Source: an uncultured Methanosarcinales archaeon
GTDB lineage: Archaea > Nanobdellota > Nanobdellia > Woesearchaeales > CAYZNE01
Direction of reading: 5' to 3'
NCBI GenBank assembly: GCA_964405295.1
Contig: CAYONI010000005.1
Location: 1 to 61,782, forward strand
Length of the DNA stretch: 61,782 bases
Below the pieces are notes generated by a model. It worked only from the letters and a program-made list of their open reading frames with translations. It did not search any database and was not told the DNA's origin. Made by a program: the position numbers and the translations under genes. Below, piece by piece: positions 3,059 through 55,388 of the stretch. The first letter of the stretch is position 1. The number at the start of each line of letters is the position of its first letter.

Positions 3059-3676
3059 TTACAATCCTTGCCTTTGCTCTTTATCTCTTCTTTCAGATAT
3101 TTCTTTAGTAGTTTTTCCTTCATTAAAGTCTCTTTCAATTTTATCAAACTCTGCTTTAGTTTGTTTTCCAATAGAACCTCTAGAAATTTTAACTTTAGCA
3201 GATCGAATGACAACACCATTTAATTCATAACCTTCTTGTAATACTTCTAAAACTATATCAGAATTTTTATCAGAATGTTCAGTCAATAGAACTTCTTGTT
3301 TATAAGGATCAAATAATTTTCCTTCTCCATCTATTTTCTTTAATCCATTTTCTTCTAGTATTGAATAAAAGTTTGAGTAGATAAGTTCCATTCCTTTAAT
3401 GAACTCTTTTGAGTCTTTATTTTGGAATCCTAATTGAAAGTTATCTAGAATTGGTAATAAATTTTTTATTAGCTCTTTATTTGCTAACTTAGCAAATCTC
3501 AGGTTGTCATTTGCATTTCTCTTTTGAAAGTTTTCAAATTCTGCTTGTAACCTTTGTAAGTGTAGAGTTAAATCTAATTTGTCTTTGTTTAATTGTTCTA
3601 CTTTAGATATCTTTGGTGCTGCTAATCCAGTATGTCCTTTTGCAGCTGCATTCTTCTGATCTTTATTCTTGCCCAT
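3059..3676 (-). CDS. grpE: Nucleotide exchange factor GrpE
   Basis: RLQAEFENFQKR, LLPILDN, FDPYKQE, GYELNGVVIRSAKV; ATG at 3676 preferred to TTG at 3709. Confidence 0.95.
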   Translation of the reverse strand: MGKNKDQKNAAAKGHTGLAAPKISKVEQLNKDKLDLTLHLQRLQAEFENFQKRNANDNLRFAKLANKELIKNLLPILDNFQLGFQNKDSKEFIKGMELIYSNFYSILEENGLKKIDGEGKLFDPYKQEVLLTEHSDKNSDIVLEVLQEGYELNGVVIRSAKVKISRGSIGKQTKAEFDKIERDFNEGKTTKEISERRDKEQRQGL

Positions 3677-3734
3677 CCTAAACCCCTTGATTCGTTGACT
3701 TAAGCTCAACGTAAGAAGGGGTAATATCTACTTG

Positions 3735-3748
3735 TTTATAAAGTTTTC
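3735..3748 (-). promoter_or_regulatory. Putative BRE/TATA promoter of grpE-dnaK operon
   Basis: Minus strand GAAAACTTTATAAA; similar purine-rich+TTTATAAA motifs precede many genes in this window. Confidence 0.55.
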
Positions 3749-3757
3749 GGTGAGATA
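3749..3757 (+). repeat. Left target-site duplication GGTGAGATA
   Basis: Identical 9-mer at 11966-11974, each directly abutting a TIR. Confidence 0.9.
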
Positions 3758-3784
3758 GGCTTTGTGTAATAATAGAAGTAGTTT

Positions 3785-4876
3785 TTACACAAGGTTTTTC
3801 TTTTTTACACAGGCTTCGAAATCTATGTTTATTTTGTTTTCAAATGCTTCTTGTATTAAGACACAGATGTTGTGGCATAAGAATTTGATTTTTATTTCGT
3901 TTGAGTTTGCTATTTCTGTTTTTGTGTTTAAGTGATCTCCAAATCTCTTTTTTATCATATGGAATCCACACTCTATGTTACTTCTAGCATGATATTTTTT
4001 CATGAATTTTTCTTTGTTGTATTTAAATTCTAAGAACATTTTTCTCCATATTGGTGATCCTCTGGCTTTCCCATTAGTATTTTTCTTAAATGGAATGTAA
4101 GAGTTTAATCCTAATTCATGTAAGAACTCGTGAACTCTTTTACTACTGTAAGCTTTGTCTGCGGTGAAGTTTTCTAAGTTAAAGTGTTTGGTTTTGTTCC
4201 CTATAACTTTTTCCAGCATAGAAATGTCTCCTTTGTTTTTTGTTGTTACTTCTACTGATAAGAAAGTGTTTGTTTTACAACCTATTACTGCATGGGCTTT
4301 TCTCCATACTCTTTCTTTACCAGTATGTTTGCCCCATTTGTAATTAAACCATTGGTCAAATCTTGATATTGAGAATCCTGTGCTGTCTATTGCTCCTGTT
4401 GTTTCAAGTTGTGCTAAGGGAATTGCTGTTATTAGAATTAGATCGTCTATTATTTTGTTTAGTTCTTTTGAGTTAAAGAAGTTATCTATACTTTTGAAAC
4501 AAGGAACTTTATTTATGTAATGTAAGTTTTTTAGTTCTTTTAATATGCTTTCAGCTTTTCTTAGGTCACTTTTGTAATAAACTTTTATGCACATTGAGAA
4601 TATTCTATCTTTAATACTATAAGGTTTTCTTCCTGGTTTAGGCAATGCTTCTTCAATTGATAAGAATAATAATTCTTCTAATAATTTTTTGAATAAAACA
4701 TCTTCATTAGTTTTAGCATTGTTATATGCGTTCCAGTCTTGAGAATAAGTTTCTTTTTTAGGTTTTATTTCTTCTTCTGGTTCTATAGGTTCAATTGGTT
4801 TAATGAAAGTGTACTGCCCAGAGTGAGTAGGGTATAATTCTATTACTTCATCTTTAGTATTTTCGGCTGATTTCAT
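3785..4876 (-). CDS. IS5-family DDE transposase
   Basis: AIDSTG, TADKAY, YHARSNIECGFHMIK (DDE + Y-R-E-K motif); N-terminal DWNAYN like IS903-group NWxxYN. Confidence 0.92.
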   Translation of the reverse strand: MKSAENTKDEVIELYPTHSGQYTFIKPIEPIEPEEEIKPKKETYSQDWNAYNNAKTNEDVLFKKLLEELLFLSIEEALPKPGRKPYSIKDRIFSMCIKVYYKSDLRKAESILKELKNLHYINKVPCFKSIDNFFNSKELNKIIDDLILITAIPLAQLETTGAIDSTGFSISRFDQWFNYKWGKHTGKERVWRKAHAVIGCKTNTFLSVEVTTKNKGDISMLEKVIGNKTKHFNLENFTADKAYSSKRVHEFLHELGLNSYIPFKKNTNGKARGSPIWRKMFLEFKYNKEKFMKKYHARSNIECGFHMIKKRFGDHLNTKTEIANSNEIKIKFLCHNICVLIQEAFENKINIDFEACVKKKNLV

Positions 4877-4930
4877 ATAAACATAGAAATATGTTTCTAT
4901 TTAAATAGTTTTCGTAACTCTTAAGTAATA

Positions 4931-4971
4931 TCGGCTTAAAATATAGAAAAATATTTAAATGATTAAGCCGA
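4931..4971. promoter_or_regulatory. Inverted repeat TCGGCTTAA/TTAAGCCGA flanking TATA-like box in divergent promoter
   Basis: Perfect 9-bp IR around TATTTAAA between transposase and AbrB-like gene. Confidence 0.5.
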
Positions 4972-4982
4972 CTTTAATAAAT

Positions 4983-5219
4983 ATGGCTGAAATTAACAAA
5001 GAAGAGCTTGCAAACATAGTAGGATACCACGAGGACTCAGAATACCTAAAAGAAGACAGAGCAATAATAAAAGACAAAAAACAATACTCAGTAAGAATCC
5101 CAGCTAAATTTGCAGAAAAAGCTAACATAAAAAAAGAAGACAAATTCAGATTTGTTTTAATACCACCAAATGAAGAAGAAACAGAATTCACAATACAAGC
5201 AACACTAATAAAAAAATGA
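4983..5219 (+). CDS. AbrB/SpoVT-like DNA-binding protein
   Basis: KQYSVRIPAKFAEKANIKKEDKFRF swapped-hairpin pattern; ATG 4983 preferred. Confidence 0.7.
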   Translation: MAEINKEELANIVGYHEDSEYLKEDRAIIKDKKQYSVRIPAKFAEKANIKKEDKFRFVLIPPNEEETEFTIQATLIKK

Positions 5220-5542: not shown

Positions 5543-7537
5543 ATGAAAAGAGAAGAAACTAATGATATTATGCAATATCTTGTGCCTAAACTAAAGGATG
5601 TAAATATTAATATATCCATTTGTAAAATAGACGTTACAACTGAAAAAAGTGGAAATAAAAGAGGGGATATTTGGATTTCTATTGAAAAACACGAATCAAG
5701 AAACTTTGAAAAAAATATAATTGCCTTAATTGAAGCGAAGCACAAAAATTCCACTATAGGAGATATTGATTGGAGAGATGCTATGCGTCAAGGTAAAGAA
5801 AAGTCATTAAAACAACATTTAGACTATTATATTGTTACTAATTGCAGATCAGAAGTAAGGTTTTATAATTCTCATAATGATGAGGAGATAATACTTGATG
5901 GTAAGGTAATTACTGGACTTGTACCAATTGATGTTTTACAAAAAATTCAAACACAAGTAAACAAGGAAAATTCTTATGTTATACATAAAGTTAGTAAAGT
6001 AATTAAACCTATATCAGAACATAAATTTAGAAATACGCTTAAAAAATTAGCTGATGTTTATAGAAGTGCTGGACTAAAAAAAGGAGATGAGAGAATTGAT
6101 CCAACCATAAGTTTTGTTGTTTTAAAATATATTTCTGAAAAAGAACAAGAACAAAGAACTTTAGATAAAGTCATAAAATTGTGGCACAATTTAAATGATA
6201 TTGCTTCTGAAAAATCTGTTGGAGATTTAAGAGTTGAATTTGACACAATGGTTAATTTGATTTGGGGGAATAAGAGTAGATACAAAGACAATATCTATAA
6301 GGACTTTAAAGATTTAATGATTTTCCCTTCTAAACTAAAAGATGAACATTTTAAGAAGATGTATGCTGAATTAGATGATTATCATTTTCATGGTGCAAAT
6401 TTTGATTTATTTGGTGCAATTTATGAAGAGTTTGCTTCACAAACAAAAAAGAGAGAATTTGGAGAATTTTACACAAGAAGACATATTACTGGTATGGTTG
6501 CAAGAATATTATTAAGAAAAGAAACTAATCCAAGAGAACTTAAAATATGTGATAATGCTTGTGGCACGGGAGGTTTTCTCACAGAGGCTTATAAGGCTCT
6601 TATAATGAATTATTCTGCAAATAATAAACTAAATAAAAATATCTTAAAACAACTTAAACAGAAAACATTTTGGGGTTATGATAACGATGATAAATCTGTA
6701 GCAAGAACAAAATTAAATATGTTTCTTGTAGGTGATGGGCACATTCATATTTACGAAAATGATTCATTAAATGGATGGAATTCAGAAATGGGGTATGAAG
6801 AAAACACTTTTGATTATATCCTAACTAATCCTCCAATGGGTAAATATGATGGTGAAGTAAGTATTAATAATTTTGAGTTTACAAATGAAAGTAAATATGA
6901 ATTGATGTTTTTAGAAAGAGTAATTAAATCTACTAAACCAGGTGGAGAAATTGCAATTGTAATTAATGATGGGACTCTTGAGACTCCATCTAAAGGAGAT
7001 TTTCGGAAAAAAATACTAGAACATTGTAATATCCATGCAGTTATATCTCTAACTAAATTCGCTTTTGCACCTTACACAAAAGAAAAAACATATATAATGT
7101 TTTTACAGAAAAAACAAGATGAAAATGTTGGAGACTTTCAGAAATCCCCAATATGGCATTTTATTGTTGATTATGATAGTTATGCTAATAGTGATAAGAG
7201 ATACAAAACAAAATATCATGATGATTTGCCCGAATTGGAGCAAAATTTTGATTCTGCAATTAAATTATCAAATATTTTTTTAAGTAATTCGTCTATTTTC
7301 AAAAATAGTAGGAGTAATTTTGAACGAGAAGTAAATGACCGAGAAAAAGAAGAGGGACTCGAAGGTCTTAAATATGGATTTATTGAGATAGAAAGAGTCA
7401 ATAAGGGAAATTTCTATAACTTACTAAGTGAATACCATCTTAGACCTTATCAATTAAAGCAAATAAAAGAATCTGATTTTAATTTAAATTTCAAAAAAAT
7501 ACAAGAGAAATTAAAAAGCTTGAGTGAGGGAAAATGA
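5543..7537 (+). CDS. Fused restriction endonuclease-N6 adenine methyltransferase (type IIB/IIG-like RM subunit)
   Basis: N-terminal GD-x-EAK nuclease motif; FGEFYT, DNACGTGGF (motif I), NPPM (motif IV). Confidence 0.88.
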   Translation: MKREETNDIMQYLVPKLKDVNINISICKIDVTTEKSGNKRGDIWISIEKHESRNFEKNIIALIEAKHKNSTIGDIDWRDAMRQGKEKSLKQHLDYYIVTNCRSEVRFYNSHNDEEIILDGKVITGLVPIDVLQKIQTQVNKENSYVIHKVSKVIKPISEHKFRNTLKKLADVYRSAGLKKGDERIDPTISFVVLKYISEKEQEQRTLDKVIKLWHNLNDIASEKSVGDLRVEFDTMVNLIWGNKSRYKDNIYKDFKDLMIFPSKLKDEHFKKMYAELDDYHFHGANFDLFGAIYEEFASQTKKREFGEFYTRRHITGMVARILLRKETNPRELKICDNACGTGGFLTEAYKALIMNYSANNKLNKNILKQLKQKTFWGYDNDDKSVARTKLNMFLVGDGHIHIYENDSLNGWNSEMGYEENTFDYILTNPPMGKYDGEVSINNFEFTNESKYELMFLERVIKSTKPGGEIAIVINDGTLETPSKGDFRKKILEHCNIHAVISLTKFAFAPYTKEKTYIMFLQKKQDENVGDFQKSPIWHFIVDYDSYANSDKRYKTKYHDDLPELEQNFDSAIKLSNIFLSNSSIFKNSRSNFEREVNDREKEEGLEGLKYGFIEIERVNKGNFYNLLSEYHLRPYQLKQIKESDFNLNFKKIQEKLKSLSEGK

Positions 7538-8619
7538 TTAAAAGTGAATTTGGAGAATTATTCAATTATCTCTCAGAAACTAATATCACAGAACAATATT
7601 TCTATGAACACAGAGGAGATTTTCCAGTATATAGTGGACAAACTAAAAACGAGGGGGTGGTTGCATATATCGATTCAGCTAATCAAAAAGAACCAAGTTT
7701 AGTTTTTACTACTTATGGTAGTGCTGGAAAATTAAACTATCGAGAAGGAAATTTTACTATAGGTAGAAATGCTATGGGTTTAAGGCCTAAGAAGAAATAC
7801 AAACAAGATATTAACTTAAAATGGTTTGCTTATAAATTTCAGAATCTTTTTTATAGGTTAAGAATAGGAGATCCCCAAGGTCAAAAAAGCTTAAATAAAT
7901 TGTTGCTTAATAAGATTTCAATAGAAATTCCAGATAAAAAAATTCAGATTAAACAATTATCTTATTATCAAAAAGCCACTGCTCTTAAAAAAGAAATATT
8001 AAACATAAAGACTGAATTGGATAATTTTTTAAAAAGCAAACAACTGATTAAAAAAGCTAAGTATAAAGAACAGATAAAAAAGATTTTTAAGATAGTTGGT
8101 GGCAACAGTGGATTAACTGAAGAATTTGTATATTACAATCAACCAACAAATAATGAAGAAAAAATTAATATTTTATCTGGTGCAACAATAGAAAACAATT
8201 TACTTGGGTTGGTTAACATTAGCTCTAAACTACATAATAAAAAATTAAAGGTATTTGTGGCACCATTTATTCAAATTGTGCGTAAAGGTTTAGCTGGACA
8301 TATGAGGTTTTTTAATAAAGGAAAATTTGTTGCCAATGATGATATTTATATTCTTAAAGTTAGAAATGAATGGAAAGATAGAATAAACTTAAGATGGTTT
8401 TGTTACCAATATCAAGAACTATTTTTTAATCTTGTAACATCAAAAAGTGATAATGCTACTTTTAATAAGAAATATACCGAAGAGCAATTTATTGAAATCC
8501 CTAATGAAAAAATTCAAAAAGAAATAACAGAAAAATTACTTATTTGTGATAATTTATTGAGTTTTATAAAAAGTTTAAGTTTAGAATTAGATAACCTTAT
8601 TGAGTGTGAAATTGTATGA
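7534..8619 (+). CDS. Restriction-modification specificity (HsdS-like) subunit
   Basis: Two repeated TRD-like halves (INLKWFAY / INLRWFCY; IEIPDKKIQ / IEIPNEKIQ); overlaps MTase stop. Confidence 0.85.
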   Translation: MIKSEFGELFNYLSETNITEQYFYEHRGDFPVYSGQTKNEGVVAYIDSANQKEPSLVFTTYGSAGKLNYREGNFTIGRNAMGLRPKKKYKQDINLKWFAYKFQNLFYRLRIGDPQGQKSLNKLLLNKISIEIPDKKIQIKQLSYYQKATALKKEILNIKTELDNFLKSKQLIKKAKYKEQIKKIFKIVGGNSGLTEEFVYYNQPTNNEEKINILSGATIENNLLGLVNISSKLHNKKLKVFVAPFIQIVRKGLAGHMRFFNKGKFVANDDIYILKVRNEWKDRINLRWFCYQYQELFFNLVTSKSDNATFNKKYTEEQFIEIPNEKIQKEITEKLLICDNLLSFIKSLSLELDNLIECEIV

Positions 8620-23058: not shown

Positions 23059-23217
23059 CTAATCCTGCATACCCTTAGCCTTTCTTCGATAAGAACCAAA
23101 TTTGTCATCAACTGGGAACTTTGCAGGTCTAGGCTTAACTGTAGCAACACCGCACTCAGAACATTTATCAGAAAGAGTATATTTTGCACATTTTGGACAT
23201 TTCATTATATGCTGCAT
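23059..23217 (-). CDS. nop10: H/ACA RNP protein Nop10
   Basis: IMKCPKCAKYTLSDKCSECG...PAKFPVDDKFGSYRR; follows aIF2-alpha. Confidence 0.92.
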   Translation of the reverse strand: MQHIMKCPKCAKYTLSDKCSECGVATVKPRPAKFPVDDKFGSYRRKAKGMQD

Positions 23218-23232
23218 TTTACTTCCTTTGAA

Positions 23233-23345
23233 TATGTGCTTAAGGTCAGCTGATTCTAAACAAAGCATCAAGTGCGTTGTGGGAGGTTGCTCCCTACGGG
23301 ACCACCGCACATTCAAACTACACATTGATTCAGTGAAAGCACATA
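23233..23345. ncRNA. Unrecognised structured intergenic element, copy A
   Basis: Closed by TATGTGCTT/AAGCACATA stem; core shared with 55237-55388. Confidence 0.55.
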
Positions 23346-23357
23346 AACATTAATATT

Positions 23358-24143
23358 TTACTTCTTATCAGCTCTTACAAAACTGAATTCAGCCTTATTT
23401 TTTTCACAGAACTCTTTTGCAAGATCAAGACCCTTTTTTAGAATTGTCTCTGCTTCCAAATAATCATGAGCAATTAACATTAATCTGAACTTACTTGAAC
23501 CAAGATATTTGATTGAAATCTTCTCTTTATCAACATCTCCAATCATAATTAAAGCCTTTCTAACAGTATCAACACCATTTGCTTCATAAGTCTTTACTGA
23601 GACATCACCAACAATCTCAACTTGTTTAGGTTTTATTCTCTCCCTAATAAGCTTTTCAATAACTTCTGTTTGCTTTTTTTCAAGGCCCAAAACAGAGAGA
23701 TCATAATCTTCTTCAATTACTGCCTCGAAACTAGGATAAACACATTTATCTTCTTGCATAGGAACTTTAGCAACTGCAAAATAAAACTTCTGAACATCAA
23801 GTTCTAAAAGTTTTGCTGAATCTTCAATTATCTTTTCAGCTTTTAACTCCTGCTTAATCTTGTCCATCTTTTTTCTCTTCTGATTATCATTAACTCTTCT
23901 AAGAGAAAGATCTATATGGCCTCTTTCAGTATTAACTCTAAGAACTTTACAAACAACAGCTTTACCAACTTTGACAAAGTCATTAATATTTCTTATTCTT
24001 CCTGGACTAACTTCAGAAATATGGATCATACCAGGCTTTCTATATTCTTCAACATTAACAAAAACAGCATTATAAGCTACTTTATTAATTTTACAAAGAA
24101 CTAATTCTCCTTCTTCTGGATAACCCTGATTATTTAATAACAT
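23358..24143 (-). CDS. eif2a: Translation initiation factor aIF2 alpha
   Basis: YPEEGELV, GMIHISEV, GHIDLSLRRV. Confidence 0.96.
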   Translation of the reverse strand: MLLNNQGYPEEGELVLCKINKVAYNAVFVNVEEYRKPGMIHISEVSPGRIRNINDFVKVGKAVVCKVLRVNTERGHIDLSLRRVNDNQKRKKMDKIKQELKAEKIIEDSAKLLELDVQKFYFAVAKVPMQEDKCVYPSFEAVIEEDYDLSVLGLEKKQTEVIEKLIRERIKPKQVEIVGDVSVKTYEANGVDTVRKALIMIGDVDKEKISIKYLGSSKFRLMLIAHDYLEAETILKKGLDLAKEFCEKNKAEFSFVRADKK

Positions 24144-55236: not shown

Positions 55237-55388
55237 TAATACTATTCTAAAGCGAGCTGATTAAATGATTATATTAAGTGCGTTGTCGAGGGATGCGTCT
55301 ACGGGAAATTAGAAATTTCCTGTATGCTCACGCACTACGGACCGACAGCACTAATAAGTTTATATCTACTCAGCGAGAAATAGTATTA
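55237..55388. ncRNA. Unrecognised structured intergenic element, copy B
   Basis: Closed by TAATACTATT/AATAGTATTA stem; core shared with 23233-23345. Confidence 0.55.

Follow-up and report, generated by a model that had tools for sequence, protein, structure and literature searches.

A folded, non-coding mobile element of one DPANN archaeal order, read as a possible MITE

The 113-nt element between aIF2-alpha and nop10 in a contig of 61,782 nucleotides (the whole stretch analysed, called the window) belongs to a mobile family. The preferred reading, held with about even confidence, is a non-autonomous DNA transposon (MITE) of one DPANN order, with a fold kept for its own spread and not for host use. 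The family shows duplications at AT-rich intergenic insertions, fast turnover and no coding, and its members in relatives carry exact IS66 or IS5-like ends. The initial annotation had described two copies as a candidate structured RNA. All of its blocks are present at 23233-23345 (copy A), and gene coordinates confirm the place of this copy in the operon. The second copy (copy B, 55237-55388) has the identical block order plus a 35-nt apical-loop insert with two hairpins, and GTGG/CCAC against GTCG/CGAC is a real compensatory pair. The annotation overlooked the flanking direct repeats and nine other copies in the source genome. The parts of the two copies are listed below.

23233-23345, plus: copy A as first annotated, between aIF2-alpha (23358-24143, minus) and nop10 (start 23217, minus)
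23224-23354, plus: entire copy A insert, 131 bp with the 8-bp duplication reading; 23226-23354 with the 10-bp reading
23216-23225, unstranded: left target-site duplication of copy A, contains the nop10 start region; single copy in the empty sites of G002 and G003
23355-23364, unstranded: right target-site duplication of copy A, contains the aIF2-alpha stop codon
23233-23241, plus: 5' arm of outer stem P1, copy A; partner 23337-23345
23242-23248, plus: conserved purine-rich bulge (AAGG block), copy A; faces GA at 23335-23336
23249-23253, plus: 5' arm of P2, copy A; partner 23330-23334
23254-23271, plus: left linker, copy A; sequence variable, length nearly fixed, genomic matches no better than shuffles
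23272-23310, plus: conserved core, copy A (P3, GT bulge, P4, joiner, P5, loop)
23272-23275/23307-23310, plus: P3, copy A core
23276-23277, plus: GT bulge, copy A core
23278-23282/23302-23306, plus: P4, copy A core
23283-23290, plus: G-rich joiner, copy A core; proposed third strand
23291-23293/23299-23301, plus: P5, copy A core; TCC/GGA
23294-23298, plus: 5-nt apical loop, copy A core
23311-23329, plus: right linker, copy A; sequence variable, length nearly fixed
55237-55388, plus: copy B, core start 55278; between a cation/proton antiporter gene and a convergent glycogen-debranching gene
55300-55334: apical-loop insert of copy B, 35 nt, two hairpins; near-identical insert in genome copy C2
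55228-55236, unstranded: left 9-bp target-site duplication of copy B, contains the antiporter gene stop codon
55389-55397, unstranded: right 9-bp target-site duplication of copy B, overlaps the glycogen-debranching gene end; empty in G002 and G001

The direct repeats that bracket the insertions measure 10 bp at copy A and 9 bp at copy B. In G002, the closest relative, both targets are single-copy and hold no element. G003 is empty at site A and G001 at site B, and a G001 contig end bears one element arm at site A. An exact repeat of at least 7 bp abuts the inverted terminus in 53 of the 162 copies whose flanks are complete (8 bp in 37 of them), compared with 0 of 150 swapped-flank controls. 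The insertion targets are AT-rich and intergenic, with no consensus. In the source genus, repeats of at least 8 bp flank 14 of 54 copies against 8% of controls; they measure 8-13 bp (37 in one case) and often overlap the stem, and insertion adds about 112-131 nt relative to the empty sites. The element is 124-340 bp long and has no transposase ORF. Its long forms hold hairpins alone, placed at the apical loop and never forming an ORF. Four doubles of 300-340 bp (L065, L089, L106 and L124) have two opposite-strand modules on one terminal stem, with one pair of ends. On the minus strand of the window, the nop10 frame is open upstream through most of copy A as an 88-aa ORF (23059-23325), with 23217 as the likely start.

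Turnover between sister species is fast, and certain junctions are hit repeatedly. When 29 G002 copies were placed against the source genome (G000), 21 sites were empty, 4 were occupied (one in opposite orientation) and 4 could not be placed; for 16 G001 copies, 7 sites were empty and 1 was shared. The core of the resident copy at C1:165714 has decayed by comparison with that of the G002 copy occupying this site. The junctions at G000:C7:23680, C14:12360 and C1:117829, compared with L358, L372, L382 and L397, are the same and hold different copies, once in opposite orientation. At the one site represented by C14 and L382 the interiors differ as much as paralogs. Near-identical copies are found at unrelated targets, and identical linkers at different targets. 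In L361, L364, L374, L376 and G000:C11:15722, one outer-stem arm is partly duplicated target or its inverse, and such target-derived arms suggest stem growth by template switching. The "mobile RNA-derived element" offered by the initial annotation stands in its first half, given the duplications and empty sites. The carrier is a DNA element with IS-derived ends in relatives, and any RNA origin would be hypothetical.

The ends fall into two classes: GTA..TAC with an 8-bp duplication, and GGC..GCC mostly with a 9-bp duplication. Of 401 genomes of the order, 37 contain single-ORF IS66 elements (scoring above the NF033517 cut-off and accompanied by a DUF2080 gene), which show 13 end types and 8-bp duplications; their subgroup bears the name ISBst12. 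Out of 164 cores, 62 have both ends within 2 mismatches of one of the 13 IS66 types, 11 are GGC-type by a loose test, and 91 are neither. The IS66-ended copies are commonly 130-135 bp long. One core is common to at least six end types of the IS66 class and to one unrelated, IS5-like type, and five identical cores of 33 nt are found with two end types. Of the 401 genomes, 90 contain the GGC end motif, a tally that takes in one match in the unpublished G337, which supports nothing else here. The IS5-like element L333 is 889 bp long; its GGC ends are flanked by a perfect 9-bp duplication, and it encodes a DDE_Tnp_1 protein of 268 aa whose best family is NF033579 (IS5), below cut-off. The GGC copies retain the distinct left and right ends of L333 at 18-19 of 20 bases.

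Terminal inverted repeats are thus shared with autonomous IS by the family in relatives. The single-ORF IS66 and the IS5-like DDE_Tnp_1 elements resemble the element in their ends, identical over 13-19 bp, and in duplication length; unlike them, it has no transposase, and its interior was not found in these IS. The core was absent from 23 IS loci and from 30 IS66 loci, and the interior does not appear to be a deletion product of a partner IS. Loop inserts were followed in 9 metagenome loci in search of an autonomous form, and no ORF was found inside the element. Other families were rejected as partners: IS1595 (0 of 61), IS6-like (4 of 61, ends differ), ISL3 (1 of 61), an IS903-type family (8 of 301, ends mostly different) and the two three-ORF IS66 of the source genome (ends differ).

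The window copies and most copies of G000 and G002 have no intact IS end pair. The termini of copy A match none of the IS ends found, and a search of G000-G003 with an IS66 query gave no homolog. Classical end recognition is hypothetical for window-type copies, because these have no IS termini and their repeats are variable and often overlap the stem. Window positions 23241-23255 share 14 of 15 bases with the left end of IS66 L274 (all 15 in L390; 11-13 in shuffles), and an IS end may be the source of the bulge and P2. The window itself holds an intact transposase gene:

3758-4876, minus: IS5-like transposase; gene 3785-4876, 363 aa, intact; one GGC-type end at 3758-3770

Its partner end is not visible within 3650-5150. 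Its GGC-type end is of the class carried by copies in relatives, none of the source-genome copies keeps this end, and any role of the gene here is putative. Beside it, at 5543-8619, two ORFs of 664 and 361 aa may encode a restriction-modification methylase and specificity subunit.

The source genome (1.27 Mb) contains 11 copies, 10 full and one with a decayed core, all intergenic and in both orientations. Searched with a model of the 10 full copies, 14 of 61 relatives were positive; apart from the source genome, seven genomes had 14-49 matches each. A broader model was positive in 24 of 151 phylum genomes, all of one order, and the element was not found in the other 127. A search by core pattern hit 123 stretches, spread over 26 of the 64 parts into which the genome collection is divided. 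By title, 111 of these are Woesearchaeota, Nanoarchaeota, Nanobdellota or "archaeon", 1 is Aenigmatarchaeota and 11 are "Methanosarcinales". The last label is doubted for the matching stretches; at one locus so titled, the neighbours are homologous to neighbours of woesearchaeal loci. No match was found among the viral contigs, plasmids and phages searched. For 104 copies with both neighbours, the strand arrangements number 34, 29, 23 and 18, none lies inside a long ORF, and no neighbour family recurs in more than 3 loci.

The plus strand of copy A folds better than dinucleotide shuffles (RNA z -3.0). For copies A and B, on either strand and with RNA or DNA parameters, z ranges from -2.6 to -4.6 against such shuffles. 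The consensus order is P1, a bulge, P2, two linkers, P3, the GT bulge, P4, the G-rich joiner and P5 with its 5-nt loop. In the 10 full source-genome copies, 90% of 290 cells are paired and 19 of 29 pairs changed on both sides, a value reached by 0 of 500 shuffles, the 29-pair structure having been drawn by eye from the same 10 sequences on which it was scored. The commonest subtype comprises 109 copies, and its helices are the top covarying column pairs. The selection on structure proposed at the outset is supported by this covariation of five helices. The GAG-GTTG-CTC hairpin first drawn for copy A is the energy minimum of that copy only, and comparison favours P5 (TCC/GGA, 23291-23293 with 23299-23301). 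Invariant unpaired bases are numerous in the core, and the linkers are 18-22 nt long.

Joiner position 11 tracks pair 20-30: of 83 distinct cores, 50 show G/C/G and 24 show A/T/A. Their mutual information reaches 0.56, whereas none of nine other variable columns, including columns that lie between, exceeds 0.14. On a tree of 100 sequences, built with the columns in question masked from a short alignment in which exchange between copies is likely, the changes of positions 11 and 20 number 24 when taken jointly, 22 and 21 when taken alone, and 39 for a control pair. The signature as a whole makes about 21 joint switches on the tree. Both states are present under 4 of 5 end types. In 3 copies, one of them copy B, position 12 varies with pair 21-29 in matching register, and copy A fits the register only partially. 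The pattern at position 11 and pair 20-30 is probably that of a short triple helix at the core tip. It comprises 3-4 triples only, without a triplex stem of at least 6 nt; the definition of intrastrand triplex repeats in the available part of PMC4666352 has a stem of 6-15 nt. A variant module without the GT bulge retains the mirror-symmetric joiner and the apical helix (L322, L323, L336-L338, L340, L342, L344 and L346, and the second arm of L089 and L124).

The non-canonical motifs of the plus strand are purine-rich (bulges and tandem G-A motifs). Wobbles are rare, with 18 G.T against 5 A.C in 2,512 cells, a count biased by the preselection of cores with at least 9 of 12 Watson-Crick pairs; in the source genome they number 17 against 9. 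Read on the plus strand, the triple is G.G-C or A.A-T, which is a purine motif. Read on the minus strand, it is U.A-U or C.G-C, the pyrimidine motif usual in RNA, and pair 7-35 alternates between A-U and G.U (81 against 79). Purine triplexes cannot form in RNA according to the available part of PMC4666352, and their formation by RNA is described as contested in that of PMC7583470. The folded strand is weakly indicated to be plus-strand single-stranded DNA, slightly likelier than RNA.

Under the MITE reading, matching DDE transposases (IS66 and IS5-like) would move the element in trans. Each round of spreading would filter for the fold, and the host would not be the beneficiary; this selection during spreading is proposed because the context is random and one resident core is decayed relative to the G002 copy. 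The plus strand of the window might become accessible as single-stranded DNA, through extrusion or copying at a fork, and might fold to a rod that joins the two ends as a ready substrate. The core with its triplex tip, set at a constant distance from the P1/P2 bulge, could offer a host factor that enables copying a site for binding or priming. Such a scheme would be compatible with any borrowed end pair. The window-type subfamily has lost its IS termini.

A bolder extension is offered tentatively and with clearly less confidence. The core may be a new class of self-serving folded nucleic acid (a putative ribozyme, catalytic DNA or single-strand priming origin) and the very unit on which selection acts. 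It would repeatedly capture unrelated IS ends, also as doubles with a module on each strand, and perhaps move without them in the window's lineage, as a transposase-independent passenger parasitising transposons. MITE interiors are commonly regarded as inert filler. Tertiary covariation in a 40-nt core across two unrelated transposase families would imply a transposition step or catalysis that needs a folded single strand. The core would then be a small, defined substrate for the question of why some non-autonomous elements outrun their helpers, and it is a natural candidate for a ribozyme or DNA triplex whose compensatory variants already exist. If the core is dispensable, the family is one more ordinary MITE, so far undescribed, and a caution to those who screen these archaea for structured RNAs.

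The alternative that survives best keeps the same MITE carrier and lets the core act as RNA, either as a new self-cleaving ribozyme or as a reverse-transcriptase copying signal on read-through transcripts; we consider it possible, though doubtful. Copy A would then be read on the minus strand by the aIF2-alpha/nop10 operon, and that strand gives the pyrimidine triple and the G.U pair. The invariant unpaired bases, the fixed 18-22 nt linkers and the hairpin inserts at one loop resemble catalytic RNA, and the opposite-strand doubles would yield one working copy on either strand. Reverse transcriptases, presumably DGR-type, occur in 5 of 14 positive genomes against 4 of 47 negative ones. However, the element lies beside none of the 21 reverse-transcriptase loci searched, and the sole reverse transcriptase of the source genome is on a small GC-rich contig. 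Orientation is unbiased, the column logos contain no conserved promoter-like motif, no Rfam ribozyme matches, and the fixed 8- or 9-bp duplications fit DDE enzymes. Twenty-four small G000 contigs (C54, C83, C20 and others) have a GC content above 38%, compared with 31.5% overall; they include the reverse-transcriptase contig and one IS66 contig, and are possibly contamination.

It is improbable that the pairing is a by-product of template switching at inverted repeats and of exchange between copies, without selection on the fold. The partly target-derived stem arms of several G001 and G002 copies and of C11, the paralog-level differences between C14 and L382 at one site, and the rarity of wobbles agree with such a process. 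It fails for the mirror-symmetric triple, whose two positions change jointly on the tree, and for the invariant loop bases and fixed spacings. The process may explain the outer stem alone.

That the element serves the host as a regulatory RNA of adjacent genes, be it a riboswitch, a processing site or a guide RNA, is very improbable and largely refuted: the copy A site is occupied in G001 too, and a TATA-like box lies within 45 nt of the end of 22 of 59 copies (peak 10-19 nt; 6 in a control window; copy A is not among the 22), but G002 lacks the element at both sites, neighbours and orientation are random, near-identical copies sit at unrelated targets, and most of the phylum genomes searched (127 of 151) are negative. 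The riboswitch of the initial annotation is contradicted by the non-recurrent neighbours and the random orientation to flanking genes; no consistent 5' sense placement before related genes was found. In guide RNAs with two variable strands (bridge RNA, TIGR, C/D, H/ACA), the strands are complementary to the target; the linkers of the element match their own genome no better than shuffles in 9 of 10 parsed copies. Retroposed or retron-like ncRNAs have a linked reverse transcriptase and duplications of variable length. The element shows no such linkage, and its duplications are fixed at 8 or 9 bp in relatives and variable in the window subfamily. The partner of REP/REPIN is RAYT (HUH), and the duplications and IS-type ends found here would point elsewhere.

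The Rfam scan (Rfam 15) assigned no known family. No gathering-threshold match lies in the window, both copies have chance-level matches only, and 20 related loci gave only a flanking tRNA. Resemblances to known motifs (c-di-AMP and THF riboswitches; twister, hammerhead and HDV; group II domain V; retron msr; K-turn) were rejected, as they rest on blocks that are variable in the larger alignment.

By analogy, the element is one that seems to work like Nezha-type MITEs and bcr1. Nezha, Correia/NEMIS, RUP and Chunjie are prokaryotic MITEs whose ends alone relate to IS, as described in the available part of PMC3184786. Like these, the element is short and non-coding, with IS-type terminal inverted repeats, duplications, empty and filled sites and a long stem-loop (PMC3184786). 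Unlike the Nezha-type MITEs as described there, it has one core under at least six IS66 end types and an IS5-like type, covarying internal helices, invariant loops and a triple signature, and its window-type copies have no intact ends. The bcr1 repeat of the Bacillus cereus group, about 150 bp long, is also dispersed, flanked by direct repeats and maintained in its fold by compensatory changes (PMC3184786). This likeness comes from description and not from sequence; bcr1 differs in its 5-bp repeats, cruciform fold and reported transcription, and neither a triple nor dual-transposase use appears in that part of PMC3184786. TM_ECO/BoxC of E. coli is a dispersed intergenic repeat without strand bias, for which a purine-motif DNA triplex has been proposed (available part of PMC4666352). 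It differs in its 9-nt triplex stems and in having no transposon link in that account, while the element has 3-4 triples in a larger mobile fold. MITEs are mentioned once in the available part of PMC13343696, on archaeal IS. A literature search with most subscription papers outside its scope found no description of the element. The element terms are absent from the main text of bioRxiv 10.64898/2026.10.21.760802, whose supplements, outside the search scope, could hold the motif.

Other GGC-ended MITEs carry unrelated, highly paired cargos of 122-298 bp, some of them recurrent across genomes (L304-L308, L311, L314, L316, L326, L331, L334, L335 and L345). L334, L335 and L345 were scanned and had no Rfam match. 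At L413:626-807, near a transposase fragment, two 91-nt tandem units share identical final sequences of about 36 nt that contain a small palindrome.
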